This document shows positions 8,440-62,067 of a stretch of 64,000 nucleotides of DNA, in pieces. The translations under genes and the position numbers were made by a program. Origin of the DNA: Alphaproteobacteria bacterium (GTDB taxonomy: Bacteria > Pseudomonadota > Alphaproteobacteria > CAAGCB01 > CAG-977); assembly GCA_045587165.1 (NCBI GenBank), contig JAZNBT010000055.1, positions 7,017 through 71,016 of the forward strand. Reading direction: 5' to 3'. Positions within the stretch are counted from its first letter, which is position 1; each line of letters starts with the position of its first letter. Below the pieces are notes generated by a model. It did no database searches, had not been told where the DNA came from, and saw only the letters and a program-made list of their open reading frames with translations.

Positions 8440-8460
8440 TTTGTATCGTGTTCTTATTTA

Positions 8461-8488
8461 AATCCCCTGTTGCAGCAGGGGATTTTTT
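8461..8488 (+). terminator. Rho-independent terminator after parB
   Basis: AATCCCCTG-TTGCAGCAGGGGATT hairpin followed by T6. Confidence 0.75.
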
Positions 8489-8506
8489 GATTCGGACGGA
8501 TGCTGC

Positions 8507-8893
8507 TTAAAAACACATAAAGGCATTCTCGATATGTTCGGGCAGATGTTTCGGGGAAATCAAAATAACATCGAATCGCATTTCTTTGTTTGTCAGTTCG
8601 GGACGGGTCATTAAAAAATATTCGGCTCCCTTGATACGTCGGGCTTGAACACGGGTATTTACAGATTCTGCTGCCGTATTGATATCAGCGCGGAATTTGA
8701 CTTCGATAAAAGCGATAACACCTTTTTTCTCGGCGATAATATCGATTTCACCGGCTCCGATTCCGCGCGGCGGTTTAAAATTTCGTTCTAGAATACGGTA
8801 TCCCTTTAATCGTAAAAACAATACGGCCATATTTTCTGCACGATAGCCGTCATTGTGCGCTTTTTTTCCGGTTTGCTGTTTATTTTGAAGCAT
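8507..8893 (-). CDS. yraN: YraN family (UPF0102) endonuclease-like protein
   Basis: 128 aa. Conserved GE-D-EVK restriction-endonuclease-like core; sits next to rsmI as in E. coli. Confidence 0.8.
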   Translation of the reverse strand: MLQNKQQTGKKAHNDGYRAENMAVLFLRLKGYRILERNFKPPRGIGAGEIDIIAEKKGVIAFIEVKFRADINTAAESVNTRVQARRIKGAEYFLMTRPELTNKEMRFDVILISPKHLPEHIENAFMCF

Positions 8894-9737
8894 TTTTTAA
8901 CTTTAGTGCCTTTTGATAAAGTGATTTTTTTGCTTCCCCTGTTTGGTCGGATACAAAAGCGGCAGCATCTTTGACGCTCATGGTTTTAAGGGCGTCTGTT
9001 AACGTTTCCAGAATGTCGTTTTCCGATATCTGCTTTTTTTCCGCCGGAGCCACGACGATAACGATTTCTCCTTTCGGAAAACCGTTTTCATGATAACGAT
9101 TCAATAATTCCGAAAAAGTTCCTCTGACACTTTGTTCGAATTTTTTTGTGATCTCGCGAACAACGGCGGCTTGTCTGTTTCCCAAAACCTTTTGCATATC
9201 TGTCAGAGTTTCCTCCAATCTTTGCGGAGCTTCATAAAAAATCAAAGTCGCCGGAATATCTGCCAGCAAAGATAATTCTTTTTGTCTGGCAGATGTCTTC
9301 GGAGGCAAAAAACCTTCGAATAAAAATCGGTGACAGGGTAAACCGGACAGCTGTAAGGCCGTCAATACTGCCGAAGCACCCGGAATGGATGTAACATAGA
9401 TGTTCTGTTCAAAACAATCCTGAACAAGACGGTATCCGGGATCGCTGATTAAAGGAGTTCCGGCATCTGAAACCAAGGCTATCATTTCACCGTTTCGTAA
9501 TCGTTTCAAAATTTCAGGACGCGCTTTATCGGCGTTGAAATTATGATAAGCGGTCAGTTTTTTTCCGGAAATTCCTAAAAGGGTCAATAGCTTTTGAGTA
9601 TTTCTTGTATCTTCGCACGCGATCAAATCGGCATGAGCCAAAACATCTGTTGCACGGATGGAAATATCACCTAAATTGCCGATAGGTGTTGCCACAAGGT
9701 ATAATCCTTTGATAAAAGAAGTTTCAGACATTTGCAC
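8880..9737 (-). CDS. rsmI: 16S rRNA (cytidine1402-2'-O)-methyltransferase RsmI
   Basis: 285 aa. Tetrapyrrole-methylase fold; N-terminal LYLVATPIGNLGD motif. Confidence 0.9.
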   Translation of the reverse strand: MQMSETSFIKGLYLVATPIGNLGDISIRATDVLAHADLIACEDTRNTQKLLTLLGISGKKLTAYHNFNADKARPEILKRLRNGEMIALVSDAGTPLISDPGYRLVQDCFEQNIYVTSIPGASAVLTALQLSGLPCHRFLFEGFLPPKTSARQKELSLLADIPATLIFYEAPQRLEETLTDMQKVLGNRQAAVVREITKKFEQSVRGTFSELLNRYHENGFPKGEIVIVVAPAEKKQISENDILETLTDALKTMSVKDAAAFVSDQTGEAKKSLYQKALKLKNASK

Positions 9738-9794
9738 TCCTTTGCAAAAACAGTTAAGATCATCTAATCACGTTTTAGATTCGGGAGCAATTCT

Positions 9795-11345
9795 TTGCGT
9801 CAAATTATTCGTCAATCAATCGTTTTTTTTGTTGCGGTATTTTTGTTAACCTCTTGTACGGGAGGGATACCGTTGTTGTCCAAACGTGTTGATCAAAGCG
9901 CCTTTCATGTCGCGGATGCTAATATTGTCGAAAAAGGCGAAGGAGCCGCGCCGGCAATTGTTCCCACGGAAATGGTTCGTGTGGGTTTACTGGTACCGTT
10001 AACGGGCAGTTCGGAAAAATTGGGCGAAGTATTGCGTAACGCAGCAATGATGTCTTTGTTTGATATTTCCAGTCAGCGTTTGATTTTGCAGTTTTATGAT
10101 ACTCAGGGAACGGCGGAAGGTGCGCGTAAAGCCGCCGAACAGGCTATCAGCCAAGGGGTCGAGCTGATTATCGGTCCAGTTTTTTCGAAATCCGTTCGGG
10201 CCATTCGTCCGGCGACTCATTCGGCGGATGTCGGCGTAATTACGTTTTCTTCCGATCCGTCTAACTTAGGGGACGGTATTTATACGATCAGTACTTTGAC
10301 GTCGCAACAGGTTGAACATATTGTTCGTTTTGCGTGTGATAAGGGATATAAGCGTTTGGCGGTTATTTCTCAGAACAACGCGACGGGGGATATTATTTCC
10401 ATGGCTGCAAAGGGGGCCGTCGACGCTTGCGGCGGTATGATTACCAAAGCGGCGTTTTACGATCCGTTAGGGGCTGATTTGCAGTCCGCCGTTCAGCAGA
10501 TAATGCCCAGAACGATGGAAGATTTGGAAGAAGAGCGCGAAGAAGAAATAAAACGGTTGGAAAAATCGAAAGAACAGGTTGCCGAAGGTAAGCCTGTTTT
10601 AATGAAAAACGAAGAAACCGGTCAAATGGAAGAAGTCAATATGTCTTTGGAACAATTGCAAGCGACCATTGACGTTTTAAAAGAACAGGAACTGGTTCGT
10701 GATCCGTTTGAATTTGATGCCGTTTTGATTTCCGAAGAAGGCAGTCGTCTGCGTTCTTTAGGGGCTTTATTTTCTTATTATGAAGTTCCTCCCGAAATTC
10801 GTATTTTGGGGACTTCCCAGTGGGCGGATTCCCGTCCGGCGCGGGAATCGGCTTTGATCGGTGGTTGGTTTTCACATCTGCCTTCCGAAGGATTTACGGC
10901 TTTTTCCAAGCGTTATAAAGCAATTTACGGTGAAAAACCGCCTCGTATCGCCTCTCAGGCTTATGATGCCGTTGCTTTGGCGGCGATATTGGCTGAAACG
11001 GGCAGTTTTTCTTATGAGAATTTAACGACGGTATCCGGCTTTAAAGGTGTTGACGGGTTATTTCGTTTGTTGCCGAACGGTTTGTCCGAACGCGGTTTAC
11101 AGGTTTTAGGTGTGGAAAAGAAAGGCTTTGTTACGTTATCTCCGGCATTAGAGGTGTTTGAAACCGTTCCGGTTTTTGTTCCCGATGTGTATATCAAGGA
11201 TTTTCGTCATTCTCCCGATTTGGTAACCGTTCCTTTGGAATTGGAAGAAAACGCCGTACAAGACAGTACCGGTAATTTGGAAACAAGTAACGTTCAAACA
11301 GAATCAATTCAGCAGGGTTCTGCACAAAGCATCCAGAATCATTAA
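9795..11345 (+). CDS. lpoA: LpoA-like lipoprotein (penicillin-binding protein activator; periplasmic-binding-protein type I fold)
   Basis: 516 aa. Lipobox LLTSC; type-I periplasmic-binding-protein-like domain; divergent from rsmI-yraN as in E. coli lpoA(yraM). Contains an acidic coiled-coil insert (EDLEEEREEEIKRLEKSKEQ...). Confidence 0.6.
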   Translation: MRQIIRQSIVFFVAVFLLTSCTGGIPLLSKRVDQSAFHVADANIVEKGEGAAPAIVPTEMVRVGLLVPLTGSSEKLGEVLRNAAMMSLFDISSQRLILQFYDTQGTAEGARKAAEQAISQGVELIIGPVFSKSVRAIRPATHSADVGVITFSSDPSNLGDGIYTISTLTSQQVEHIVRFACDKGYKRLAVISQNNATGDIISMAAKGAVDACGGMITKAAFYDPLGADLQSAVQQIMPRTMEDLEEEREEEIKRLEKSKEQVAEGKPVLMKNEETGQMEEVNMSLEQLQATIDVLKEQELVRDPFEFDAVLISEEGSRLRSLGALFSYYEVPPEIRILGTSQWADSRPARESALIGGWFSHLPSEGFTAFSKRYKAIYGEKPPRIASQAYDAVALAAILAETGSFSYENLTTVSGFKGVDGLFRLLPNGLSERGLQVLGVEKKGFVTLSPALEVFETVPVFVPDVYIKDFRHSPDLVTVPLELEENAVQDSTGNLETSNVQTESIQQGSAQSIQNH

Positions 11346-42441: not shown

Positions 42442-43596
42442 TTACTTAACTGTTAACAGATTGTATGACGGAGATACCAGTAATGTATCTTTCTGAACGG
42501 TCAATGTGCTGTTTGCAGGAAGATTTACAGCTTCAAGCGCAACAGCATCCGACCGGAGAGATACCGCCGTATCAAGCGTGATCGAAGGAGTGTTGGGAAG
42601 CTCTGTATAGGTTGTCTCAATCAATTTGCTGACAGTCTTATCCGATCCCGTTAAGGTGCCGTCCAACTCGACGGCTCTGACAAAGCCCGTATATAAATAC
42701 GGTTTTCTTAACAGCGGTTTTTTAAAGTCGTCCATAACGACATCAACCGCTTCGAACTTCGGCAGGCAAAGATTTAATTTCCTGTTCCAGACCAAGGGTT
42801 TTGCCGTTATGTTTGTATTCAGCTTTGTATACAATGTATTCAATCTGGGCGTACTGGCAACAAGAGTTGGCAGACAGTCACCGCAGCAGGCTTTTCCGGT
42901 GCCGGATCCTACTGTGCATTGTTTTCCGAGCGGACATGTCACGCCGTCACACGGGCTTTTGCAACCGCCGTTTCCGTCGGCGACTTGTACGTTGCTGCAC
43001 TGCGGATCGTTTGTGGATCCCAACGGATACGGTATGCAACGACCGATGCTGCAATAATGTCCCGTACCGCATGTTTTGTTGGTGCACAGAGGGCGCTTGA
43101 TCAAACAGTAGCCTAATGTCGTACATATACCGTTGCTGCCGCAATCACTGTTTTGCGTGCATTGTACGCATTTTCCATTACCGACGCATTTTAAGCCTTT
43201 ATCGGTGCATATCTTTGCCACTTCTGCTCTTTCACAGGGTGTTTTACATGTTCCCTTGTGATTTTCAGCGATACATTGAGAGCCGCTTATGGATGAGCAA
43301 TCAACGTTTTTGCAAGCGGAAACGCACTCGCCGCCGGAGGCACATTTTTCCGTCAGTTCGCAATCGCTGTCGGAAAGACAAACGTCTACAGACGCCGTAC
43401 CGCCTCCACTGCCGAAACCGCCGGTTTCTTTTGACGCAGTGTATGCCGGAGCAGAAATAACAGTCGCGTTTCTACCGATTTTTACCGCTTTTGCGATCAT
43501 AAACGTATCATTTGAAAAAATGCCGGAAGTTTCCGTTGCCTGAACAGGGCTGGCGGCAAACCAGACGGCTGTAAAAAACAAAAACAGTTTTTTCAT
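42442..43596 (-). CDS. Secreted cysteine-rich repeat protein (EGF-like / granulin-like Cys spacing), paralog A
   Basis: 384 aa. Signal peptide (...ASPVQA/TE) and a Gly-rich linker. About 190 aa hold over 40 Cys in repeating C-x4-5-C-x5-C-x4-5-C units ending in CCGDC. The C-terminal Cys-free roughly 140 aa share motifs with the neighbouring paralog. Confidence 0.5.
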   Translation of the reverse strand: MKKLFLFFTAVWFAASPVQATETSGIFSNDTFMIAKAVKIGRNATVISAPAYTASKETGGFGSGGGTASVDVCLSDSDCELTEKCASGGECVSACKNVDCSSISGSQCIAENHKGTCKTPCERAEVAKICTDKGLKCVGNGKCVQCTQNSDCGSNGICTTLGYCLIKRPLCTNKTCGTGHYCSIGRCIPYPLGSTNDPQCSNVQVADGNGGCKSPCDGVTCPLGKQCTVGSGTGKACCGDCLPTLVASTPRLNTLYTKLNTNITAKPLVWNRKLNLCLPKFEAVDVVMDDFKKPLLRKPYLYTGFVRAVELDGTLTGSDKTVSKLIETTYTELPNTPSITLDTAVSLRSDAVALEAVNLPANSTLTVQKDTLLVSPSYNLLTVK

Positions 43597-43629
43597 AAGT
43601 TTTCTCCTTTAATATCTAGGTTTGCCGAT

Positions 43630-44697
43630 TTATTTGGCAACTTTTAACGCTTGCCATTTCGCCTGAGCGGCGACGGTTGCTTCTTCCATCAACACTTTTT
43701 TATTCAGAATTTCTTCCGCAACTACGGGATCGTCTAGAACCAATTTGGCCGTTTCGTCCTTCAAGGCGGCGTCTGTGGCGACCAATTCGAAATTTTCGAT
43801 TTTATATCTGTCAAGCAACACGGGTTTTAACGTGATGCCGGCGTCCGTCGCATCTTTTTGATATTCGCAACAACCGTCGTTACATTCCTGTCCTTCGCCG
43901 CATTTCACGCCGATACATTTCAGGTCGAAATCGATGGGAATGATTTCTGGCTTGCGGCATAGTTTCAACCTGCGGAATTTCTTGTTTGTGATGAATTTGC
44001 TGACCAAAGTTGTATCCAATACGCATTTGCTAGGATATTTGGCACAGTATCCGGCTCTGTTTTTCAACGGGTTGATGGTTTCGACTTCGGGATCCCATTC
44101 CGCGATTTTATACAACTGCGGATGTTTGACCGGCGTAATAAACGGTTTGAATTCATCTACCGTAAGATCGACGGTTTTAAAGCCGTTGTCGTCGACTTCG
44201 AAATCCGTTTTGAATTCTGCCACGTCGACAACATCGCTGTCGAATGTAACGCAGGGAATCGTGTCTATTTGAATGGCCGTATTCGGTAAAGTGGCAACGA
44301 TATCGTCAGAAACCAAATCAACGTCAGTTCTTGTACTGTCGTTTATTTGATCTTCCAAAACAATCCAACGATCGCTCGCTGTAAGAGTTAACAAGTCGGC
44401 TTTTTTAAATTGTGTCGTCGCTACTCCATTAATTGTTCTGACGGTAGTTCCTGTCGTAGTCGTTGTTGTCCCTGTTGTCGGTGTTGTGGTGGTGGGTGTA
44501 TATGTCGAAGTTCCACCGCTGCTGCCGCCGCTGACTCGATCGTCAACAGCCACGGCATATGACGCCTGTTGTTTTGCTACAGTTCCGACAGACGTGCCAT
44601 CCAAATCGGTTGCCACGGCATTCGCCGTTGTTGGCAGGATTGAAACGGCTGCGGGCAGAATCCCTATCGCCGCTGCGTAAAGGAAAAATTTCTTCAT
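43630..44697 (-). CDS. Secreted protein with mucin-like poly-Thr tract and C-terminal Cys-rich module, paralog B
   Basis: 355 aa. Signal peptide (...TTANA/VA) and low-complexity SGGSSGGTSTYTPTTTTPTTGTTTTTTGTT. Shares the LPNT..I..DT and VD..DFK..L.KP.LY motifs with paralog A, and its C-terminus ends in a CGEGQECNDGCC cluster. Confidence 0.5.
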   Translation of the reverse strand: MKKFFLYAAAIGILPAAVSILPTTANAVATDLDGTSVGTVAKQQASYAVAVDDRVSGGSSGGTSTYTPTTTTPTTGTTTTTTGTTVRTINGVATTQFKKADLLTLTASDRWIVLEDQINDSTRTDVDLVSDDIVATLPNTAIQIDTIPCVTFDSDVVDVAEFKTDFEVDDNGFKTVDLTVDEFKPFITPVKHPQLYKIAEWDPEVETINPLKNRAGYCAKYPSKCVLDTTLVSKFITNKKFRRLKLCRKPEIIPIDFDLKCIGVKCGEGQECNDGCCEYQKDATDAGITLKPVLLDRYKIENFELVATDAALKDETAKLVLDDPVVAEEILNKKVLMEEATVAAQAKWQALKVAK

Positions 44698-44749
44698 TAT
44701 ATGAGCCTCCTCTAATGTCTATAAATTTTTCTATATAATGGTAACATTT

Positions 44750-44767
44750 AATTGTGGCAAAATTATG
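44750..44767. repeat. 18-bp direct repeat AATTGTGGCAAAATTATG, copy 1, flanking the G-tract
   Basis: Perfect copy of the 18-mer that recurs at 44836-44853. Confidence 0.8.
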
Positions 44768-44781
44768 TAAATAATATGTTC

Positions 44782-44794
44782 GGGGGGGGGGGGG
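44782..44794. repeat. Homopolymeric G13 tract (C13 on the coding strand), candidate slipped-strand phase-variation switch, about 85-97 bp upstream of the paralog B start
   Basis: 13 consecutive G in an otherwise AT-rich intergenic region; no other homopolymer longer than 9 was noticed in the window. Confidence 0.8.
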
Positions 44795-44835
44795 TAACTT
44801 ATTGATTTTAAAAGATATTGTTTTATTTTTATTGC

Positions 44836-44853
44836 AATTGTGGCAAAATTATG
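44836..44853. repeat. 18-bp direct repeat AATTGTGGCAAAATTATG, copy 2
   Basis: Perfect copy of the 18-mer at 44750-44767. Confidence 0.8.
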
Positions 44854-44956
44854 GCAAAAAATGACAAATTTGTCCGCCATTCTTTTGTTTATGAATTTTT
44901 GATCTTTCGGGCATATTTGAAAATTCCGCCCGTTATTGCAACATGACGCAAAGCAA

Positions 44957-45910
44957 TCAAGGGTGCTTTAATAAATCTTTCAACGATTTCCAATGGTTAA
45001 ACTGAAAATGCGCTTTAATTCTGTCATAGACGGCTTTGTATTTATATCTGCGCAATCCTGAAGAATTCCAGTAATGAAGATATATTTTGTAAGGTTTGAA
45101 AATTGCCGCCGATCCGAACGAATTCCACGGTTTTTCATAGGCGATATAATGAAAAATTCCTGTGTTGTTCATATCTGCGGAATGGAGTGTCCTGAAAATC
45201 TGATTGTTCCATTTCGGATGCAGCGTTACGATGTCATTATTAAATAAACAGTTTAACAAGTCTTGTTCGCCGTATCCTTTATATTTTTTCGGATTTTTTT
45301 CAAAACTGGAAATTATTTTTTCAAACAGATTGTTTTTTTTCCATTTATCCGTATTTATTAAAATAACTCCGGCGTTGTAATAAATATCCGTTGAGCATAT
45401 TCTTCTTAAATCCGGTGAAACATCTTCCACCATTGCGAAAAAATGATTTTTTAAATCCGTTTGGAATATTTCTTTTAAATCTTGCATTACCAACGTGTCC
45501 GCGTCCATATACAAAACTTTGCTTACTTCGTCCGGTAAAAGCGAAGGAATGAACAGCCGCATGAAAGAAATAAAGGATACATGCTTATATTGGGAAGAGT
45601 ACATATGTTTTATTAATGGAAAATATGTCTGATATAACGAAGATTGATGCGGGGAGATAAAATTTATTTTTTGATTTCTTTTTTCAACATACTTTTTCAT
45701 CAGTTTTTTATTTTTTTCGGAAACGTTGTTTTCCAAAATCCAAAAAGTATATTCTGAACCGGATTTGTTGTTTTTTAGAATGGAATTGATGGAAAGAAGT
45801 GTATAAACAGCATAGCTGTCACTGATATTATAGGCAACGTGGACGGCATCATTCGCGATTGTTTTGAATGAAATTAAAATAAATAAAAAAGCTAAAACAA
45901 ACCGTTTCAT
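44957..45910 (-). CDS. Glycosyltransferase family 8 protein (LgtC/glycogenin-like) with N-terminal signal anchor
   Basis: 317 aa. GT8 motifs including DXD (LYMDADTLV) and the C-terminal H-x-x-G-x-x-KPW motif (HYIAYEKPW). N-terminal hydrophobic segment MKRFVLAFLFILISF. Very AT-rich (about 30% GC). Confidence 0.7.
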   Translation of the reverse strand: MKRFVLAFLFILISFKTIANDAVHVAYNISDSYAVYTLLSINSILKNNKSGSEYTFWILENNVSEKNKKLMKKYVEKRNQKINFISPHQSSLYQTYFPLIKHMYSSQYKHVSFISFMRLFIPSLLPDEVSKVLYMDADTLVMQDLKEIFQTDLKNHFFAMVEDVSPDLRRICSTDIYYNAGVILINTDKWKKNNLFEKIISSFEKNPKKYKGYGEQDLLNCLFNNDIVTLHPKWNNQIFRTLHSADMNNTGIFHYIAYEKPWNSFGSAAIFKPYKIYLHYWNSSGLRRYKYKAVYDRIKAHFQFNHWKSLKDLLKHP

Positions 45911-45923
45911 CTGTTTCTCCGGA

Positions 45924-46403
45924 TTAAAAAATAAAATAATATCTCATCAAAAAACTTGTCAAAAGAATGAACGACGAGCCGATGTATTTTATATCTTTGT
46001 TCTTTAAAGACAGCAGTGAAACGGAAAAAATAAGAAAAACAACCGCCTTGTTATATTCCGTTTTTTCAAATTGAATTGCATTTATAAAACCTGTAAATCC
46101 TATGCAAAAAAGGATGAAAGATATAAATAAAACAGTATGATACTTGTAGTAATCTTTTTTATAGATGGATATGATAAATATGGATACAATAAATAAACCT
46201 AAAAACGGGAATAAAAGTGTAAGAATATATACTATGAAATCAAAACAAGACAGCAAGAATAAATCTGCCATGAAAAAAAGATTATATTTTGTAAAAAGAA
46301 TTATTATGCTGTAGAGAATTGTAAAAATAAGTAATTTCATTTTAAACTCCGGATACGGAAAAGATATTTCAGAAAAATCATACTGTCCACAACATTTTTT
46401 CAA
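45924..46403 (-). CDS. Small polytopic membrane protein (4 predicted TM helices), hypothetical
   Basis: 159 aa and very AT-rich; lies 13 bp upstream of the GT8 gene on the same strand. The true start is possibly the internal MKLLIF. Confidence 0.4.
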   Translation of the reverse strand: MKKCCGQYDFSEISFPYPEFKMKLLIFTILYSIIILFTKYNLFFMADLFLLSCFDFIVYILTLLFPFLGLFIVSIFIISIYKKDYYKYHTVLFISFILFCIGFTGFINAIQFEKTEYNKAVVFLIFSVSLLSLKNKDIKYIGSSFILLTSFLMRYYFIF

Positions 46404-46482
46404 TATGGAGCAAGTGTTTCAAATATCGGATGAGCTGTCGGCTTTTGCCGGCAGCCTGTGCCGTTATATACAGATTTCAATA

Positions 46483-46511
46483 AAAAAGCCCTCGTTTCAG
46501 AGGGCTTTTTT
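46483..46511 (-). terminator. Hairpin plus T-run immediately downstream of tRNA-Arg (minus strand)
   Basis: GCCCTCGTTTCAGAGGGC hairpin flanked by A/T runs. Confidence 0.6.
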
Positions 46512-46513
46512 AT

Positions 46514-46590
46514 TGGTGATCTCGCCGCGATTCGAACGCGGGACCCACAGCTTAGAAGGCTGTTGCTCTATCCAGCTGAGCTACGAGACC
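46514..46590 (-). tRNA. tRNA-Arg (anticodon TCT), CCA encoded
   Basis: Manual cloverleaf: acceptor GGTCTCG/CGAGATC, D-arm GCTCAGCTGGATAGAGC, anticodon loop CTTCTAA, T-arm GGGTCCCGCGTTCGAATCGCGGC, discriminator A plus CCA. Confidence 0.9.
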
Positions 46591-47340: not shown

Positions 47341-50300
47341 ATGATGAAAAATCGATTTTTTATAATTTTATGTTTTTTTACATTTTCGGCGTTTCCTGCA
47401 TTTGCCGAAGAGTTAAACTACAATGATTCCGAGACATTTCCGGAATTTTTCAAAAACGTAGATGCTTTGATCGCGATCGGTGCGGATAAAGCCTATACCG
47501 GAGCGGACGGTACGGCATATTCCGGATTTTCAGGGGCGGGAGTGACCGTTGCCGTCATTGATAACGGGACAATGGCGAATCATCCGGATCTCGTGCAGTC
47601 ACACAGCACTCTGCAAAAACCGCAATTTAATATTTCCGCAGAAAAACACGGTACGCACGTCGCCGGTATCATTGCCGCGGAAAAAAACGGTTCCGGAATG
47701 CACGGGGTGGCATATAATTCCGATTTGTTGCTTTTTTCCACTTCACTGGAAGGCGGCTGCGGCGGCATGGAGGGCTGTTTGAGCCCGATGGCGGCTTTAG
47801 AGGCATTGTTGGACAGTGAATACGATGACGTTAAAATTATTAACAACAGTTGGGGGCTTTTTGAAGAGGATATCAACGAAAATGTATTGGCCAATATTCA
47901 TCGGTTGATGGATGCCATCGTCGCCAAAGATAAACTGATCGTTGCTTCCGCCGGAAATGATATGGAGTTGAATCCCAATACTTTTCCCGCCGGTGTCGGG
48001 CTGTTGGATAATTCCTTTAAAAATAATGTAATTAATGTTGTCGCTTATGATTCGTTCAAAAATCATTCCGCTAACGATTTTATCGCGTCTTTTTCCAATT
48101 TGGCAGGTGACGCAAAGGAATGGACTCTGGCCGCCCCCGGAAAAAATATTTATTCTTCGATTTTATATGATGAAACGGCAGACCCTCCCGCGGAAAAATT
48201 CGCTGAGATGAACGGTACATCCATGGCGGCGCCGCTTGTTTCCGGCGCGGCCGCTTTGGTTCAGGAAGCTTTCCCTTATTTAGGCGGCAAACAAATCGCC
48301 GATATTTTGTTTTCTACGGCAAAAAAGAAAAAGGATTTGGATGAAACAGGTTCGGGGCTGAGCCCGTATATGATTCAAAATTATTCGGGACAAACGCGTG
48401 TTTTATTCTTTAAAGATAATAAAGAGGGCACTACGTTTGAAGAAGCCAAAGCTGCCGCCGCTTCGCTCGGATACTCTTGCGGCGGATCCGTTTCCTGTCA
48501 CGAAGTCACGTTTGAAGATGTCTTCGGTCAGGGATTGTTGGATGTCGGGACGGCTGTCAAAGGCATTAAATATTTCGATGCGTCCAGATTGACGGCCGAA
48601 GATTTCGACATAGGAAAAAACCAGTTTTATTACAGTGTTGATACTTTGGGTATGGACAGCGTATGGAGCAACGATATCGGTCAGCTCCGATCAAGCGACG
48701 AATTGTATAAAACGGCGAATGTCGGTTTAAGAAAACGGGGTGAAGGCGTTTTAACCTTGGCCGGAGCAAATACGTTTTTAGGTACTTCGGTCGTTGACGG
48801 CGGTGAATTGAATTTGACGGGCAGCATGGAAGGCGATGTTGTTGTCAATACGGGAACGTTTTCCTTGTCGGATACCGGTTTGATGAACGGCAAAATAACG
48901 ACGAATGCCGACGGATTGTTGCGGATAGAAGATTCCGGAACGCTTTTAAATCTTGAAAATAACGGAAAGACTTTGGCCTCGGGCGGAAAATCAACGGGGA
49001 ATGTTGTTAATAACGGAACGTTTTCCGTCGCCGGAGGAGGTTTTATATCAAGCAGAACATTTACAAATAAAAACAATTTTCAGTTTGAAACCGACGGACG
49101 TTTTTCAGGCGTTTTAGATAACGAAGGGCTTGTTTCCGTTATAGGTAACAGCGAAATAGAAGGAAATCTTAACAACAAATCGTCCGGAATCGTTTTTGTG
49201 AACGCCACGATAGGAAATTCGTCGGCTATAGAGAATTATGGTCTTTTATCCGGTGAAGGCGACATAACGGGATCTGTTGTCAATCATGAATCGGGTACCG
49301 TCGCGACAACATTGAAGATTCATGATTTAAATTCTACCGGAAATATTCAGTTGTCCGAAAATCCGGACGGATTGGCCACTTTGAAGGTCAATACACTGAA
49401 TATTACAGGGGGGGCTTTGACGATCGCAAGCGGTAATATCAGCTATGAAAACGGGCAAACCTATTCGGTGATTGAATTTGATAATCTGACGAGTTTTGAA
49501 AATTTCGAACCGCAATCGAAACTGTCCGATTTTATTGTGGCGACGCCTCATGTAAACGGCAACCGTATTGAAGCCAGAATCGATTATTTGCGTATGGGCG
49601 AATCCGCTGCGACGGAAACATTTCTACCGGAAGAAAAAGTCGTCGCCGGTATTATGGATAAAATGTATTTTGACGACAGTAATAAGGATTTAAAAGGGTA
49701 TTTTTATCTGTCCGGCAAAGAACTGCAAAAGGAAATCAATACGATCCGTTCCAAAGCAAAGCCGATTCAAAAAGAACATTTACCGTTGGCGGGAACAATG
49801 TCTTCACAGGTTTCCAATCATTTATTCAAGGTAAATATGAATCGTGACGCGGCGACGTTTCATCGTCAATACAGACCGATGCAGCAATACAGGGGCCGAT
49901 ATTACAACCGCGGTTCCGTCGGCAGGTATTATCGCGGCAGATCCGGCGGCAGCGCTCCGAAAACGGGAAACAAGATCTGGGGGCAAATTCTGGGCGGCAG
50001 AGTTGTTGAGGAGGACAATGTTTCGGACAGGGGGAATGTCAAAACCAGAACGGTCGGCGGTATGATCGGATACGATCATGAAATTTCATCGCGATCTTTA
50101 ATCGGTATTACGGCCGGTTATGCTTCGGGGCGTTTGACGCAATCTTCGGATGAAATTAACGTTAATGATTATCGCGCGGGGATTTACACGGGATCCAGAT
50201 TCGGCAAACTGACGTTTAACACGATGTTGTTGGGCGGTTTTCAACAATATAAAAGCGAACGGTATACGGAAGCCGCCGGTTTAAATGCTTTGCATCGGGC

Positions 50301-50799
50301 TGATTTTAACGGATATTCCGCGGAATTGGATGTAAATCTGGGCTATGATTTCATGCGTTTGCCGTATCGGGATTATTCTTTTTATCTGCGATCCTATCTG
50401 GCGGCGAACGTCAATTATATTTCTCAGGATTCATATGAAGAAAAAGGGGAATCGCCAATGCTGTTAGGCGTTGACAGCATTAATAACACTTCTGTCAGTA
50501 TTCAGCCGGGGATTACGATCGGTTATACCTTTTCTCAGGCCGTTTTGACGGCTGATTTCGGTTATCAGCGGATTTTAAGCGGTGATTCCGTTCAATCTTC
50601 GGCTTATTTCCTTGCGGATACGGCAAGAACACCGTTTGAATCTTTATCGGCGGAATCGGATAAAGATTATATTAATGCCGGCGTCGGTCTGAAAACAAAC
50701 CTGACCCGTAACGTTGAATTGAATTTGTATGCCGGTATGCGGAAATCCGATAATACCGAGGCGATTAATTTCGCCGCATCGCTGTCGTATGCTTTTTAA
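47341..50799 (+). CDS. Subtilisin-like (peptidase S8) autotransporter, paralog 1
   Basis: 1152 aa. Signal peptide; S8 catalytic triad motifs (VAVIDNGT, HGTHVAGIIAA, GTSMAAPLVSGAAAL); Gly/Asn-rich beta-helix passenger repeats; Tyr/Arg-rich linker; about 280-aa C-terminal beta-barrel ending in SYAF. Confidence 0.85.
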   Translation: MMKNRFFIILCFFTFSAFPAFAEELNYNDSETFPEFFKNVDALIAIGADKAYTGADGTAYSGFSGAGVTVAVIDNGTMANHPDLVQSHSTLQKPQFNISAEKHGTHVAGIIAAEKNGSGMHGVAYNSDLLLFSTSLEGGCGGMEGCLSPMAALEALLDSEYDDVKIINNSWGLFEEDINENVLANIHRLMDAIVAKDKLIVASAGNDMELNPNTFPAGVGLLDNSFKNNVINVVAYDSFKNHSANDFIASFSNLAGDAKEWTLAAPGKNIYSSILYDETADPPAEKFAEMNGTSMAAPLVSGAAALVQEAFPYLGGKQIADILFSTAKKKKDLDETGSGLSPYMIQNYSGQTRVLFFKDNKEGTTFEEAKAAAASLGYSCGGSVSCHEVTFEDVFGQGLLDVGTAVKGIKYFDASRLTAEDFDIGKNQFYYSVDTLGMDSVWSNDIGQLRSSDELYKTANVGLRKRGEGVLTLAGANTFLGTSVVDGGELNLTGSMEGDVVVNTGTFSLSDTGLMNGKITTNADGLLRIEDSGTLLNLENNGKTLASGGKSTGNVVNNGTFSVAGGGFISSRTFTNKNNFQFETDGRFSGVLDNEGLVSVIGNSEIEGNLNNKSSGIVFVNATIGNSSAIENYGLLSGEGDITGSVVNHESGTVATTLKIHDLNSTGNIQLSENPDGLATLKVNTLNITGGALTIASGNISYENGQTYSVIEFDNLTSFENFEPQSKLSDFIVATPHVNGNRIEARIDYLRMGESAATETFLPEEKVVAGIMDKMYFDDSNKDLKGYFYLSGKELQKEINTIRSKAKPIQKEHLPLAGTMSSQVSNHLFKVNMNRDAATFHRQYRPMQQYRGRYYNRGSVGRYYRGRSGGSAPKTGNKIWGQILGGRVVEEDNVSDRGNVKTRTVGGMIGYDHEISSRSLIGITAGYASGRLTQSSDEINVNDYRAGIYTGSRFGKLTFNTMLLGGFQQYKSERYTEAAGLNALHRADFNGYSAELDVNLGYDFMRLPYRDYSFYLRSYLAANVNYISQDSYEEKGESPMLLGVDSINNTSVSIQPGITIGYTFSQAVLTADFGYQRILSGDSVQSSAYFLADTARTPFESLSAESDKDYINAGVGLKTNLTRNVELNLYAGMRKSDNTEAINFAASLSYAF

Positions 50800-50820
50800 T
50801 AAAACAAAGAGGGAAATGCG

Positions 50821-53800
50821 GTGTTGAAATATAACCTTTTTCCTCTTTTCTTTGCTCTGCCGTTTTCCGCAGCCTTTGCGGCGGATACGGAATATTCCGT
50901 CAATCAAAAAGCTTATGACGCTTTAGGGGCGTCGCAGGCGTATGCGTTGGGCTTTACGGGGGCGGGCGTTACGGTCGCCGTTGTCGACAACGGAACGCTT
51001 GCCACGCATCAGGAATTGAAAGACAAATTCAGCGAACTGCAAAAGGACGAATACAATCATTATCAGGATATTGCGGATCACGGTACGCCGGTTTCCAGTA
51101 TAATTGCCGGAAAAAAGGACGGAACGGGCATGCACGGTATCGCATATGATTCGCAAATCGTCGCTTTCGCCGTAGAGTTGGACGACGGTGTGGATTGTCC
51201 GTCATGCTATCAAGGTTATGCGGAAGCTTGGAATATTCTGGCGACGGATGAATTTGACAGCGTTAAGATTATCAATAACAGTATCGGAAGTTATGATCAT
51301 TTACCTGATTCCACTCCTTCTTCCGATAGAAGAAGCGCGGCGGCGGCTCTGGTCGCAAAGGATAAATTGATTGTTGCGGGTGCGGGAAACGATACTTCTT
51401 TGTCTCCCGCCGACAGTCCGGCCGGGCTGCCTTATTATGATTCCAGTCTGAAGTATAATTTCATCAGCGCGATCGCGTATAATGCATATTATACCTCATC
51501 CAGTCCGTATTTTTTGGAAAGTTATACCAATTTGGCTCAATATGCGCAGGAATGGTCGTTAGCGGCACCGGTCGGATCTTTGAGGGCGGCATCGCATGAA
51601 GGGGATTCTTCCTATACGAATTTTGCCGGAACGTCTGCGGCGACACCGGTTATTTCAGGCGCTGCTGCCGTCGTATCCAGCGCTTTTCCTTATATGGGCG
51701 GGAAACAACTGGCTGACGTTTTGTTTTCCACTGCCGATAAAAATTATGCCGGTTTCAGTGATTATATGATTCAAAAAGATAACGGCAAATTGCAATTTTT
51801 GTTTTTCGGGTCGGCCGACGGATACGGCAAAGATTGGTCGGACGATGAAAAAAAAGCGATCGTTCAAGCGGAAATGGGCGGCGCGTATACGTGTTCGACT
51901 GAAGGCGTTTTTTGTGTCGACGTCAGTTATGCCGACGTTTTCGGCCAAGGGGTGTTAAATTTGGCCAATGCCGTCAAAGGCCCCGGCTATTTGGATGCCA
52001 ATCGTCTGAAGCTTTCCGATTTTACGGGAACGCAGTATGTTTATACGGTCGACGTGCAAGAATATGACAGCACGTGGAGCAATAATATCGGTCAGGTTAA
52101 ATCAAAAACCGAAAATATTGATGCGGACGTCGGCCTGAAAAAACAGGGGGCGGGAACTTTGACCCTTTCCGGACAGAATACGTATTTAGGGACGACGACG
52201 ATTGAAAGCGGTGCATTACGCTTGACAGGAACATTGGCCGGGGATGTGTCCGTCGCTTCGGGAACATTTTATTTAAACGGCGGAACCGTTTTCGGAAAAA
52301 CGGTTTCTTTGGCCGGCGGGGAAGTTAATGTTGACGGCGGAACGTTATTTTCGCTCAGCGGAGCCGGAACGGTTAACTTTTCGGCGGGATCTGTTCGAGA
52401 GGTGAAAAATCAGGGGAATTTTTACCTGACGGGAAGCGGGCTTATTGCCGATTCGGTCGAAAATACCGGACAATTTTATTTTAACGGCGGTTCGATAAAA
52501 GGTTCCGTTTCAAACGAAGGGAATTTTTATTTAAACAATCCGTCGTTTTCTCAAAAAATCCAAAATACGGGAACGGTTCAAAACAATACGTTATTGAAAG
52601 AAGGGTTGGTTATCGGCGGAACGTTGGTTAATCAGGCAGGAGGTCTTCTTTATTTGACTTCGACACCGGATACGTTGATCAATTACGGCGGAATAGTTTT
52701 ATCTCCTTCGTCGACAGATGCCTCCGTTTTACAGCAAATGACGGTTTCTCATTTAACGTTGGCCGGCGGAGGATTTGTGCTGGATACGAATAATTTGCCG
52801 GAATTCGGGGAAGGAATGTCCTATCAGATTTTAAAGGCTGAAAATTCTTTAAGTATCGGTGATGATTTTAAGCTTTCCGATCAGATCGGCCAATTTATTG
52901 TCGCCCGAACGAATGTAGACAACACGGAAAGAACGATTTCTTTATCATTGGAGTTTTTGCCTTTATCTTCAACGTCTTATGCTCCGAATTTAACGGAAAT
53001 GGAACGTCAAACGGCGACGGTGATCGATCGTTTGTTTAAAAACGAACATTTCAATGATTTCTCGGGATTTTATTTCTTGGATGAAAAAGGTTTGAAAGAT
53101 CGGATAAATAAAATAAAAGATCAGGTAAAACCGGTTCATTTTGCTTCTTTGCCGTTGTCAAACAGGTTGGGACGGACGATCCAAACACATCTTTTTGAAC
53201 GTCAAACCGGTAAAGATCCGTATCGGTATAACGGCGGACGGCGGTATTATGAACCGTTATCCCCCGGTCGCCATTCGCCGCGAGGGGACGTATACCGCAA
53301 TTATCGTCCCGGTAATACGCCTCAGGAAAATTATCGTCATGCCGTTCCGCGGACGAATGATGTGTACCGCAATTATCGTCCGGGTAATGCGCCTCAAGAA
53401 AATTATCGTTATTATGTGCCGCGCAAACGCGACGTTTACCGTAATTTCAGACCGAACGGTCGTTCCGGCGGACAATCGTTCGGTATGCGGACAAACGTTT
53501 GGGGGCAAATGTTGTATGCCAAAAGCACGTATGATGCCGATGAGCTTTCCGGCGGGACCGAAGCCGAGGGCACCGGCATAGGGCTGATGTTCGGATGGGA
53601 TTTCGTTTATTCGAAAGACTTTTTGTGGGGGGTGACGGCCGGATATGCACAGTCGTCCGTTGAACAAGACGACGACAATACCGATGTGACCGATTTGCGT
53701 TTCGGCGCCTATTTCAGTCGACAAAAGGATTTTTTGTCCGTTGACGGCGTATTGATGATCGGATTGCAAAGTTATGATAAAAAACGCGTTACGGATTTGC

Positions 53801-54345
53801 CGATGAAGACGTTTGAACATTCGGCGTCTTTTAACGGAACCAGTGTTGAGGCCGCTTTGAATGTAGGATATGACCTGCATCAGATTCCCATGCAGGCGGG
53901 CGATTGGTCTTTCAGGCCTTATATCGGTGCGACGGTTATACAGATGACGCAAGACGCCTACAGTGAAACAGGTTCATCTGATCTGAATTTATCCGTACAG
54001 GAAGCCAAAGACACTTCCGTTATTTTATCCCCCGGTTTAATTGCCGGATTTGTCGCCGCAGATACGAGTCTTTTCTTGATCAAGCCGGAATACGTCTTTT
54101 TTGATTTGCGTTATGATCAATATTTATCGGGGGGGAATGCCTCGACAAAAGCTTATTTCAGTGCGGATACGCTGCAGACGATGTTTGAATCTCCGGACAG
54201 TGAAGAAAAATCCGCGTTTACGTTCGGGGTAGGCGTTAACGGCCGTATATCTAAAAATACGCGTTTGAACTTGCTGTTCAGCAACAGAGCCGGTTCTAAA
54301 TCGTCTTCGCAGTCGATTTCGGCGACACTGATTCATTCGTTCTGA
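50821..54345 (+). CDS. Subtilisin-like (peptidase S8) autotransporter, paralog 2
   Basis: 1174 aa with GTG start after an AGAGGG RBS. S8 motifs (VAVVDNGT, HGTPVSSIIAG, GTSAATPVISGAAAV); beta-helix passenger; internal 72-bp tandem repeats; C-terminal barrel ending in IHSF. Confidence 0.85.
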   Translation: MLKYNLFPLFFALPFSAAFAADTEYSVNQKAYDALGASQAYALGFTGAGVTVAVVDNGTLATHQELKDKFSELQKDEYNHYQDIADHGTPVSSIIAGKKDGTGMHGIAYDSQIVAFAVELDDGVDCPSCYQGYAEAWNILATDEFDSVKIINNSIGSYDHLPDSTPSSDRRSAAAALVAKDKLIVAGAGNDTSLSPADSPAGLPYYDSSLKYNFISAIAYNAYYTSSSPYFLESYTNLAQYAQEWSLAAPVGSLRAASHEGDSSYTNFAGTSAATPVISGAAAVVSSAFPYMGGKQLADVLFSTADKNYAGFSDYMIQKDNGKLQFLFFGSADGYGKDWSDDEKKAIVQAEMGGAYTCSTEGVFCVDVSYADVFGQGVLNLANAVKGPGYLDANRLKLSDFTGTQYVYTVDVQEYDSTWSNNIGQVKSKTENIDADVGLKKQGAGTLTLSGQNTYLGTTTIESGALRLTGTLAGDVSVASGTFYLNGGTVFGKTVSLAGGEVNVDGGTLFSLSGAGTVNFSAGSVREVKNQGNFYLTGSGLIADSVENTGQFYFNGGSIKGSVSNEGNFYLNNPSFSQKIQNTGTVQNNTLLKEGLVIGGTLVNQAGGLLYLTSTPDTLINYGGIVLSPSSTDASVLQQMTVSHLTLAGGGFVLDTNNLPEFGEGMSYQILKAENSLSIGDDFKLSDQIGQFIVARTNVDNTERTISLSLEFLPLSSTSYAPNLTEMERQTATVIDRLFKNEHFNDFSGFYFLDEKGLKDRINKIKDQVKPVHFASLPLSNRLGRTIQTHLFERQTGKDPYRYNGGRRYYEPLSPGRHSPRGDVYRNYRPGNTPQENYRHAVPRTNDVYRNYRPGNAPQENYRYYVPRKRDVYRNFRPNGRSGGQSFGMRTNVWGQMLYAKSTYDADELSGGTEAEGTGIGLMFGWDFVYSKDFLWGVTAGYAQSSVEQDDDNTDVTDLRFGAYFSRQKDFLSVDGVLMIGLQSYDKKRVTDLPMKTFEHSASFNGTSVEAALNVGYDLHQIPMQAGDWSFRPYIGATVIQMTQDAYSETGSSDLNLSVQEAKDTSVILSPGLIAGFVAADTSLFLIKPEYVFFDLRYDQYLSGGNASTKAYFSADTLQTMFESPDSEEKSAFTFGVGVNGRISKNTRLNLLFSNRAGSKSSSQSISATLIHSF
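53287..53460 (+). repeat. About 2.4 tandem copies of a 72-bp coding repeat (DVYRNYRPGN(T/A)PQENYR) in the autotransporter 2 linker
   Basis: Units at 53287-53337 and 53359-53409 are near-identical (3 mismatches), and a degenerate third unit follows. Confidence 0.8.
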
Positions 54346-60331: not shown

Positions 60332-62067
60332 TGCAAAAACAGAATTTGTTAAAGCGGCTTCTTTCTTTTACCCGTCCTTATCTGCTTTATTTGATTCTGG
60401 CATTGATTTTGGCTGTTTTCAGCGTATCTTTGGCACTCTATGCGCCTGTGCTGACCGGTCGGGCTATTGATTTGGTCGTCGGTCGGGGGCAAGTGAATTT
60501 TGAAGCTTTAAAATCTGTTTTATTTACGCTTGGAACGGTTGTTGCCGCAACGTCGTTCAGTCAATGGCTGATGGGATTGTTTACCAATAAAATCACATAC
60601 CTGAGTGTGCGTGATATTCGTGTCAAAGCTTTTGAACGTTTGCAAAAAGTGCCGTTGCGATTTGTTGATTCGAATGCGCACGGCGATATTCTCAGCCGCG
60701 TTATCGTTGATGCGGAACAGGTGGCCGATGGTTTGTTGATGGGATTTACGCAGTTGTTTACCGGAATCGTGACGATTTTCGGAACGATCGGGTTTATGCT
60801 GGCGATTAATGTCAAAATTACGCTGTTGGTTGTTTTTGTGACCCCGCTTTCTTTGTTTGTTGCTCATTTTATTGCCAAACGGACGTTCAATCTGTTTAAA
60901 CTGCAATCCGAAACGCGCGGCGAAATGACGGCAATGATTGAAGAAAACGTCGGAAACATGAAATTGGTCAAAGCGTTCGGACGGGAATCGGCGTCAATCG
61001 CAAAGTTTGAAGAAATCAACGGTCGTCTGCGCATCTGCGGGATAAAGGCTTTATTCTTTTCTTCTATCACGAATCCGTGTACGCGGTTTGTCAACGGAGT
61101 CGTATATACGTTGGTCGGTATTGTCGGGGCATTGTCGGCAGTGGCCGGTGCGTTAAGCGTCGGACAGTTATCCTGCTTTTTAAGCTATGCAAATCAATAT
61201 ACGAAGCCGTTTAACGAAATTTCGGGCGTTATTGCCGAATTGCAAAGCGCTTTGGCTTCCGCGAAAAGGCTGTTTGAAATTATCGATACCGAGCCTGAGG
61301 CGCCGGATTCGAAAGACGCTTCCGTATTAACAAGGGCGGACGGATCGGTTTTTTTGGAAAAAGTTTCGTTTTCTTATGTGCCGGAAATTAAATTAATCGA
61401 GGATTTAAATCTGTCCGTGCAATCCGGTCAAAAAATAGCGATTGTCGGAAGGACGGGCTGCGGAAAAACGACTTTGATCAATTTATTAATGCGTTTTTAT
61501 GACGTTAATGCCGGTCGTATTGTCGTCAGCGGCAAAGAAATCAAAGAATTGACACGCGACAGTTTGCGTGCGTCATTCGGTATGGTATTGCAGGATACAT
61601 GGCTGAAATCGGGTACAATCCGAGAAAATATCGCGTACGGCCGGCCGAATGCGTCCGATTATGAAATTGTCAGCGCGGCCGTTGCGGCGCATGCCGACGG
61701 TTTTATCAAACGTTTGCCGAACGGGTATGATACGCCGATAGCCGAAGACGGCGGCAATCTTTCTCAAGGACAAAAACAGTTGTTGTGCATCGCGCGCGCG
61801 ATGCTTTCCCTGCCGCCCATGCTGATTTTGGATGAAGCGACCAGCTCGATAGACACGCGTACGGAAATTCATGTTCAAAAAGCATTTGATGAAATGATGC
61901 GGGGGCGGACAAGTTTTGTCGTTGCGCACCGGTTGTCGACAATCAGACGGGCGGATCAGATTTTGGTAATGGATGCCGGACGGATCATAGAGCAGGGAAA
62001 CCATTTGGAACTGCTTGCAAAAAAAGGATTTTACGCCGAACTGTACAACAGTCAGTTCGCCGTTTGA
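60331..62067 (+). CDS. ABC transporter permease/ATP-binding protein (type I exporter half-transporter), subunit 2
   Basis: Walker A GRTGCGKTT, signature LSQGQKQL, Walker B LILDEA. Start at the ATG overlapping the upstream stop; the track ORF starts 33 nt earlier. Confidence 0.88.
   Translation: MQKQNLLKRLLSFTRPYLLYLILALILAVFSVSLALYAPVLTGRAIDLVVGRGQVNFEALKSVLFTLGTVVAATSFSQWLMGLFTNKITYLSVRDIRVKAFERLQKVPLRFVDSNAHGDILSRVIVDAEQVADGLLMGFTQLFTGIVTIFGTIGFMLAINVKITLLVVFVTPLSLFVAHFIAKRTFNLFKLQSETRGEMTAMIEENVGNMKLVKAFGRESASIAKFEEINGRLRICGIKALFFSSITNPCTRFVNGVVYTLVGIVGALSAVAGALSVGQLSCFLSYANQYTKPFNEISGVIAELQSALASAKRLFEIIDTEPEAPDSKDASVLTRADGSVFLEKVSFSYVPEIKLIEDLNLSVQSGQKIAIVGRTGCGKTTLINLLMRFYDVNAGRIVVSGKEIKELTRDSLRASFGMVLQDTWLKSGTIRENIAYGRPNASDYEIVSAAVAAHADGFIKRLPNGYDTPIAEDGGNLSQGQKQLLCIARAMLSLPPMLILDEATSSIDTRTEIHVQKAFDEMMRGRTSFVVAHRLSTIRRADQILVMDAGRIIEQGNHLELLAKKGFYAELYNSQFAV

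Follow-up and report, generated by a model that had tools for sequence, protein, structure and literature searches.

The locus analyzed here lies beside a tRNA-Arg gene in a 64 kb stretch of DNA (the window) from an Alphaproteobacteria bacterium placed in GTDB CAG-977 (contig JAZNBT010000055.1). Four open reading frames (ORFs), all in the same orientation on the minus strand, were found in the ORF list at the coordinates claimed for them in a preliminary description of this DNA. They encode, from the tRNA onward, a small multi-pass membrane protein, a glycosyltransferase of family GT8, and two exported proteins called here B and A. The locus is probably composed of two independent two-gene units: a phase-variable B-A operon, and a strain-specific cassette made of the membrane protein and GT8 genes. 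Its features, in order of position, are:

42442..43596, minus strand: gene A, 384 aa (ORF list)
43630..44697, minus strand: gene B, 355 aa (ORF list)
44259..44679, minus strand: hypervariable 5' part of gene B, which encodes the poly-Thr tract; no blastn similarity to relatives between 44680 and 44258
44706..44712, minus strand: ribosome-binding site (RBS) GAGGAGG of gene B, read from the sequence; kept in all relatives
44732..44760, minus strand: candidate core promoter of B-A, TTGCCA-17 nt-TATATA, read from the sequence
44750..44767, minus strand: downstream copy of the 18-nt direct repeat CATAATTTTGCCACAATT; invariant in all relatives
44782..44794, minus strand: poly-C tract, 13 C on the B-A coding strand; candidate phase-variation switch
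44836..44857, minus strand: upstream copy of the direct repeat, with a third TTGCCAYAAT copy 11 nt further upstream
44875..46476, minus strand: window-specific 1.6-kb insert of low GC content; blastn boundaries against L001, L003 and L004
44957..45910, minus strand: GT8 glycosyltransferase, 317 aa (Pfam PF01501)
45924..46340 (ORF to TTG 46403), minus strand: small multi-pass membrane protein, 138 aa from ATG
46478..46515, minus strand: tRNA terminator hairpin, 16-nt perfect arms followed by a T run
46514..46590, minus strand: tRNA-Arg, anticodon TCT (ARAGORN; Rfam tRNA, 65.9 bits)

Much of the anatomy that had been described is found as claimed. The tRNA-Arg(TCT) is there, as are all of the quoted peptides (TPTTTTPTTGTTTTTTGTT, CGEGQECNDGCC and CCGDC), and the gap of about 260 bp between GT8 and B measures 259 nt from the GT8 stop (44957) to the B start (44697). 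The reported trough in GC content is real as well: the fraction is 0.325 in the GT8 gene and 0.25 in the membrane protein gene, against 0.477 in A, 0.467 in B and 0.447 in the window, and the upstream pair forms the 1.45-kb stretch with the lowest GC anywhere in the 64 kb. The membrane protein had been given as 159 aa; its ORF is present, but the start is more likely ATG 46340, giving 138 aa, than TTG 46403. An Rfam scan of 42.0-47.5 kb put the tRNA alone above the gathering score, and the sub-threshold "leader" matches fall on terminator hairpins. The terminator hairpin at 46478-46515 sets the tRNA apart from the insert.

The Poly-C Tract and the B-A Promoter Region

The gap upstream of B had been called a "switch region" in the preliminary description, which overlooked the element that would do the switching: a 13-nt poly-C tract at 44782-44794. 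It ends 85 nt upstream of the B start codon and is flanked by the 18-nt perfect direct repeat. It is the sole C/G run of at least 9 nt in the window (5 overlapping matches vs 0.29 expected), and the 264 kb of fetched DNA (contigs designated by L numbers) has no other site with a run of at least 8 C. The tract is present in L001-L004, L007, L011-L022 and the window; L008 and L023 have lost it. Wherever the upstream region of a relative is intact, 13-14 nt separate the tract from the invariant motif CATAATTTTGCCACAAT downstream of it, even in lineages whose A proteins share only 33% identity. Its length ranges from 12 to 19 overall:

Window: 13
L001: 14
L003: 18
L002: at least 19 (contig end)
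L011, L012: 14
Contigs with the identical B protein P0040: L013, 12; L004 and L007, 13; L016, 14; L017, 16
Contigs with the identical B protein P0040, interrupted tracts: L014, C6AC7; L015, C5TC10

The contigs encoding the identical B protein P0040 have near-identical flanks and differ in tract length. Five of the ten contigs with this protein (L018-L022) end inside the tract, an indirect sign of mixed tract lengths within one population. A homopolymer of at least 9 nt, a length that varies between constant flanks, and a position kept across diverged lineages, three of the properties of a simple sequence repeat (SSR) phase-variable promoter, are found here. Conservation of the tract across lineages at 33% identity, with a length that changes faster than one amino acid substitution accumulates, is, as far as the compared sequences can tell, the signature of a contingency locus.

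A candidate core promoter for B-A consists of the hexamer TTGCCA (44760-44755), a 17-nt spacer and TATATA (44737-44732), and is followed by the RBS GAGGAGG. The TTGCCA hexamer falls in the invariant motif, and with the promoter so placed the tract would lie 20-21 nt upstream of the -35 hexamer. A scan of the intergenic region with the sigma-70 consensus returned 15 sites vs 10.3 expected. Two further copies of TTGCCAYAAT lie upstream of the tract; these and the upstream repeat may be regulator or recombination sites. Strict helical phasing between the TTGCCAYAAT copies was considered as a conserved feature and discarded, the spacing being 86-127 nt between lineages.

The repeats can also remove the tract. 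In L023, the closest relative, whose B and A proteins are 92% and 97% identical to those of the window, an exact 86-bp deletion has occurred between the two 18-nt CATAATTTTGCCACAATT repeats (L023:1-146 vs window 44750-44853). It takes out the tract and spares the candidate core promoter, possibly creating a locked allele. In L008 (4449-5642) the DNA upstream of the promoter motif is swapped for the 3' part of an ORF and there is no poly-C tract. By eye, the translation of this ORF reads like a type I restriction-modification methylase. Either the DNA has been rearranged here or the assembly was joined at the tract.

Homopolymers in promoter regions are known from Bordetella pertussis fim2/fim3 and Neisseria meningitidis opc (poly-C) and from porA (poly-G). 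The B-A region resembles these loci in its C/G homopolymer, which exceeds 10 nt and lies in the promoter region of genes encoding exported or surface proteins, in a tract length that differs between closely related strains, and, if the candidate promoter is correct, in the position of the tract upstream of or near the -35 element, where its length sets the spacing of promoter elements. The proposed switching mechanism is a familiar one, in genes and a host clade that are new. Unlike fim2/fim3, opc and porA, the B-A operon belongs to an uncultured gut alphaproteobacterium, not a classical pathogen, its genes encode two orphan Cys-rich proteins of no known family, and its tract is flanked by the 18-nt direct repeats able to delete it. 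SSR phase variation in Neisseria is the subject of a general review [PMC5084427].

Proteins A and B

Protein A starts with a signal peptide and a conserved N-terminal segment; a Gly-rich linker and a disulfide-rich core follow, and the C-terminal ~140 aa have no predicted structure. The core holds 28 Cys within residues 73-241. The whole protein has 29 by count, not the more than 40 reported earlier, and 22 are invariant in the alignment. The AlphaFold2 model has a mean pLDDT (predicted local distance difference test score) of 56.5, reaching ~80 only for residues 71-245, and predicts small disulfide-rich hairpins. The EGF-like or granulin-like label attached to these Cys modules has to be dropped, as there is neither an EGF match in Pfam nor a fold match. 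Short modules of the C-x5-C-x5-C type give A a likeness to TIGR04201 (Myxo_Cys_RPT), EGF arrays and knottins, but its score against TIGR04201 is 14.8 bits (E 0.023) vs a 25-bit cut-off. With this match below the cut-off and no EGF match in Pfam, A has no demonstrable membership in the TIGR04201, EGF or knottin families.

Protein B has a signal peptide, a hypervariable N-terminal region of ~140 aa, and a C-terminal region that is conserved, contains 9 Cys and ends in a helix. The protein alignment shows three unrelated variants of the N-terminal region: a poly-Thr/Gly/Pro variant, one with T-x-Q-L-K-x-L-D-type repeats, and a short Thr/Asn-rich form. The poly-Thr variant is confined to the window, where the tract occupies residues 76-94, and to the closest relative, protein P0037. 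Among the window ORFs of at least 150 aa, B is the only one with a Ser/Thr-dense 20-mer (16/20). The AlphaFold2 model of B has a mean pLDDT of 50.7, and only parts of it are confident. A and B had been called paralogs, a relationship that the comparisons do not bear out: the best BLASTP E value is 0.05, and hhalign pairs only residues 1-21, the signal peptides, with a probability of 54%.

Comparison of the A and B models with solved structures gave no fold match, and scans of Pfam, NCBIfam and PADLOC gave no family for A, B or the membrane protein. Neither A nor B has a lipobox, a beta-barrel or a sorting signal. Look-ups of the exact sequences of window A and window GT8 returned no matching record.

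The N-terminal half of B may also vary in another way. In the P0040 cluster, 216-aa B calls starting "MILEKVPCVEF" (P0052, P0054, P0062 and P0063) occur on 28, 20, 3 and 3 contigs, respectively. To judge from these calls, many strains of the cluster seem to have a disrupted variable half or none; a frameshift or a second switch could be responsible.

Distribution and Synteny of the B-A Operon

The A family comprises 14 homologous clusters in 5.8 billion sequences and the B family 10; an exhaustive profile search of 1.84 billion representatives gave 6 clusters for B. The relatives of A come from the metagenome-assembled genome Alphaproteobacteria bacterium PUUB15_bin.049, from the uncultured Rhodospirillaceae bacterium UMGS1296, and otherwise from metagenomic contigs. 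B-A is an orphan operon restricted to a small clade of uncultured gut Alphaproteobacteria.

The fetched contigs that carry the operon number more than 20 and represent at least six lineages; no GT8 gene was seen near it on any of these. The syntenic order is rubrerythrin, tRNA-Arg(tct), variable cargo, B, A, and then the convergent rodA-mrdA-mreD-mreC-mreB-miaA genes; it is kept even in L011, where A is 33% identical. B-A adjoins rodA-mrdA-mreDCB without a GT8 gene in L001, L002, L003 and L011, and GT8 is likewise missing beside B-A in L004, L007 and L013-L016. The cargo between the tRNA and B differs:

L001 and L003: nucleotidyltransferase-like protein and CDGSH iron-sulfur protein (58-aa remnant in L001)
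L004, L007, L013-16: nucleotidyltransferase and CDGSH genes, and an ABC/HlyD export pair
L011: nucleotidyltransferase and CDGSH genes, a 739-aa protein and an acetyltransferase
Window: membrane protein and GT8

The export pair, an ABC exporter and a membrane-fusion protein of the HlyD/AprE type, lies beside the B-A promoter in one lineage only (L004:1510-4541, L007:1498-4529, L013-L016). A and B were considered as substrates of these neighboring type I secretion genes and rejected as such: both have classical Sec signal peptides, and the secretion genes are absent from the window, L001, L003 and L011. L004 has an extra 758-aa gene between A and rodA. Downstream of A in the same contig, positions 7790-7822 repeat the window's tRNA-terminator sequence 46477-46509 (91% over 33 nt).

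The Insert at the tRNA

The blastn boundaries of the insert are 44875 and 46476; beyond them, similarity to relatives starts again exactly with the tRNA terminator and with the B promoter. Because no nucleotidyltransferase or CDGSH homologue is present anywhere in the window, the event is, to all appearances in the alignments, a replacement of these two genes. The preliminary description had proposed horizontal acquisition of the upstream pair, a proposal that agrees with its low GC and its absence from the same tRNA in the syntenic L001 and L003. As for the block of four genes as a whole, the A/B half is conserved across the clade with normal GC, and the GT8 half is not.

With its position 3' of a tRNA, its atypical GC, its absence from syntenic relatives and the other cargo found there instead, the insert resembles tRNA-associated genomic islets. 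It differs from these in being only 1.6 kb and in having neither an integrase nor a repeat of the tRNA 3' end. It holds two ORFs only, no integrase among them, and the window has no second copy of the tRNA 3' end and no att-like repeat around the insert. The insert has the look of cargo replaced in a recombination hot spot, not of a classical island brought in by an integrase. The two segments specific to the window, the 5' part of B and the insert, look like separate events, since a conserved promoter lies between them and their GC differs (0.47 vs 0.25-0.33).

Two observations from other contigs also concern a tRNA-Arg gene. In L001, the stretch 7476-7720, just past the tRNA-Arg, repeats the 3' end of the tRNA (cgcggcgagatcac) and has a GC-rich ~65-nt repeat in two copies; an earlier insertion here seems to have left an att-like scar. 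In L006, an unrelated genome of ~35% GC, positions 6295-10996 hold tRNA-Arg(tct) and, after 30 nt, a 115-aa membrane protein, a transporter of the major facilitator superfamily (MFS), a 661-aa double GT8 and a single GT8. A window ORF that was compared with the AlaRS of L006 did not match it. The occurrence of a related cassette directly after tRNA-Arg(TCT) in an unrelated genome suggests that this tRNA gene is a preferred landing site.

The GT8 Enzyme and Its Cassette

The GT8 assignment is secure. The protein matches Pfam PF01501 with an E value of 2.7e-45 (155.4 bits vs a 24.3-bit cut-off), residues 24-264 aligning with positions 1-251 of the 253 in the profile. Of the residues in the DxD and H-x-x-x-x-x-KPW motifs, D136, D138, H254, P261 and W262 are invariant in 15 homologues and K260 is nearly so. 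The enzyme had been called eukaryote-like. All five solved-structure matches at E ≤ 0.001 are nevertheless GT8-type entries (5gvv, LgtC, WbbM and 3tzt), which we take to be bacterial, and no glycogenin, GXYLT or XXYLT chain is found among them. The best match is 5gvv (E 1.3e-18), deposited as "Glycosyl transferase family 8" and presumably the Streptococcus pneumoniae enzyme GlyE, which elongates the O-glycan of PsrP; LgtC follows at roughly the same distance, with E 2e-16. About 17 close homologues were found, all of them metagenomic.

Like 5gvv and LgtC (1g9r/1ga8, the alpha-1,4-galactosyltransferase of Neisseria lipooligosaccharide, LOS), the window enzyme has a GT8 domain with DxD and a C-terminal H..KPW motif, and it sits on a low-GC, strain-variable locus, as is typical of surface-glycan genes. 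It differs in three respects: its N-terminus is a conserved Sec-type signal or anchor, its partner is a small multi-pass membrane protein (elsewhere also an MFS transporter), and it lies in neither a lipopolysaccharide (LPS)/LOS nor an accessory-Sec locus. Its score against PRK15171, the equivalog for the LPS-core enzyme WaaI, is 71.7 bits vs a 461-bit cut-off. No LPS core or O-antigen cluster surrounds it; the genes to one side are rodA, mrdA, mreBCD and miaA, and those to the other are tRNA-Arg, rubrerythrin, two S8 autotransporters and fliP.

The Sec-type signal or anchor occupies residues 1-22 (MKRFVLAFLFILISFKTIA|ND), with basic residues, a hydrophobic core of 12-17 residues and a small-x-Ala site. 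Of the 14 closest homologues listed (P0015-P0028), 13 keep a hydrophobic N-terminus, as do P0034/P0035; the distant homologues P0032, P0033 and P0036 lack it. Such a signal is unexpected on a bacterial nucleotide-sugar glycosyltransferase; a search of the literature on signal-peptide GT8 enzymes and on this clade found nothing pertinent.

The membrane protein gene ends 13 nt before the GT8 start, and the two are probably co-transcribed. A 136-aa counterpart precedes GT8 in L005 and aligns with the window protein from Met22 (32% identity, E 5e-20). Four other contexts of the GT8 gene or cassette were found, three of them with a membrane protein and an MFS transporter. In L005 the 136-aa membrane protein is followed by GT8 (59% identity) and MFS, in L010 a homologous 135-aa membrane protein by GT8 (60%), MFS and the start of a GalE-like epimerase, and in L009 GT8 stands alone beside a HIT protein; the fourth is L006. 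None of the four has A, B or a Ser/Thr-rich neighbor, and in all four hosts the cassette is lower in GC than its flanks. The MFS partners in L005, L006 and L010 are homologous (43-75% identity) and show only generic efflux-type similarity to NCBIfam models and solved structures; the window has no MFS homologue. The GalE beside the L010 cassette hints at UDP-galactose as the donor.

Interpretation

For the B-A operon, we propose that slipped-strand mispairing would alter the length of the poly-C tract in the promoter region. The change in length would shift the AT-rich upstream DNA and the TTGCCAYAAT repeats relative to the core promoter, and the outcome would be stochastic, heritable on/off switching of B-A transcription. 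The two proteins that the operon encodes are Sec-exported and disulfide-rich. Export, phase-variable control and the hypervariable N-terminus of B together suggest that B (and A) would serve as an antigen, adhesin or receptor, either secreted or at the cell surface, that is subject to diversifying pressure. The cassette is inherited separately and has displaced the nucleotidyltransferase and CDGSH genes at the variable spot between tRNA-Arg(TCT) and the B promoter. The most likely activity of its GT8 is the transfer of a hexose, perhaps galactose, to a glycoconjugate of the envelope, which would provide a strain-variable surface decoration.

Several observations weigh against parts of this reading. 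All sequences compared are consensus assemblies from short-read metagenomes, and errors in homopolymer sequencing or assembly could account for part of the tract-length differences and contig breaks; a drop in coverage alone can end contigs inside homopolymers, and two independent samples, L004 and L007, agree at 13 C. The sigma-70 scan left out the proposed -35/-10 pair, the -10 hexamer is poorly conserved among relatives, and the spacing between upstream and downstream motif copies (86 to 127 nt) is not kept between lineages. A surface location of A and B finds no lipobox, beta-barrel, sorting signal or fold match to lean on, and the Sec-type N-terminus of GT8 fits poorly with a cytoplasmic LPS/LOS transferase. 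The tract might instead be a fixed structural promoter or spacer element, its length differences homopolymer sequencing or assembly noise, with no phase variation. This is improbable, because the spread from 12 to 19 exceeds the typical off-by-one consensus error, and the interrupted or deleted variants L014, L015 and L023 show real sequence turnover at the site. Moreover, a homopolymer of 12-19 nt kept at one position despite 33% protein identity implies selection for the tract itself, and we know of no benefit of such tracts other than mutability, as in the contingency loci of Neisseria, Bordetella and Haemophilus.

The preliminary description had joined all four genes into a dedicated glyco-adhesin or effector system, in which GT8, assisted by the membrane protein, would attach O-glycans to B at its poly-Thr tract, to A at its Cys-rich modules, or to both. 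That the combination of genes matches no described system in Pfam, NCBIfam or PADLOC is correct. The genes are adjacent and in the same orientation, no terminator is predicted in the DNA from GT8 to the B promoter, and among window ORFs of at least 150 aa only B has a Ser/Thr-dense segment. The poly-Thr form of B is confined to the window and P0037, whose contig begins in window-specific DNA 36 nt past the GT8 stop; a GT8 of 99% identity (P0049) occurs in other samples, and the relative with P0037 probably also carries GT8. The best structure match, presumably GlyE, is marginally ahead of LgtC, and GT8 and B, both with Sec signals, could meet outside the cytoplasm. A single module of this kind is nonetheless unlikely. 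B-A occurs in at least six lineages with no adjacent GT8, and GT8 or its cassette in four contexts with no A, B or Ser/Thr-rich neighbor. The window and P0037 A proteins are 97% identical, so the pairing of poly-Thr with GT8 is a single observation, from one lineage. The insert and the 5' segment of B are separated by the conserved promoter and differ in GC, the modules of A are not EGF domains, and no nucleotide-sugar donor is known to us in the periplasm. Nor does the locus resemble the glycosylation of serine-rich repeat adhesins of the GlyD/GlyE type: no SecA2, SecY2 or GtfA/B is adjacent to GT8, and B, whose Sec signal is ordinary, has one Thr-rich tract of 19 residues in place of serine-rich repeats.

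The exported GT8 might alternatively belong to an extracytoplasmic system unrelated to A and B, acting on periplasmic or outer-membrane glycans or on host mucin, with the membrane protein, plus MFS where present, supplying or anchoring the donor. The conserved Sec-type N-terminus of the close homologues and the homologous MFS beside GT8 in L005, L006 and L010 speak for such a system, which is still very unlikely: the window lacks an MFS homologue, the N-terminal segment could be an uncleaved anchor or peripheral helix, and Leloir-type GT-A enzymes need nucleotide sugars, which in bacteria are cytoplasmic. It is equally hard to credit that an undescribed Leloir-type system of this sort (GT8, its membrane partner and, elsewhere, MFS) decorates the mucin-like poly-Thr stalk of a phase-variable B; were it true, the poly-C switch would vary the presence of the surface protein and the cassette its glycan coat.

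If the tract works as proposed, B-A would be a contingency locus in uncultured gut Alphaproteobacteria, a group for which we know of no reported phase-variation studies, and the two orphan exported proteins would be probable targets of host or phage pressure. The locus gives a handle on surface variation among strains of a gut commensal that only metagenomes have revealed; tract lengths can be read from existing metagenomic reads. The conserved Sec signal makes this GT8 subfamily unusual in its own right, as one would not expect a nucleotide-sugar glycosyltransferase outside the cytoplasm of a bacterium. The locus also cautions annotators that adjacency at a tRNA hot spot does not equal functional linkage.

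Other Features of the Window

ARAGORN reports a 90-nt "tRNA-???" at 61348-61437 on the plus strand whose anticodon, tgtg, has four bases; this is perhaps an unusual tRNA-like element, perhaps a false positive. Beyond the tRNA-Arg as seen from the four genes, positions 47341-54345 (plus strand) encode two tandem S8 subtilase autotransporters of ~1150 aa each, with PATR repeats, which are kept in L001 and L003.

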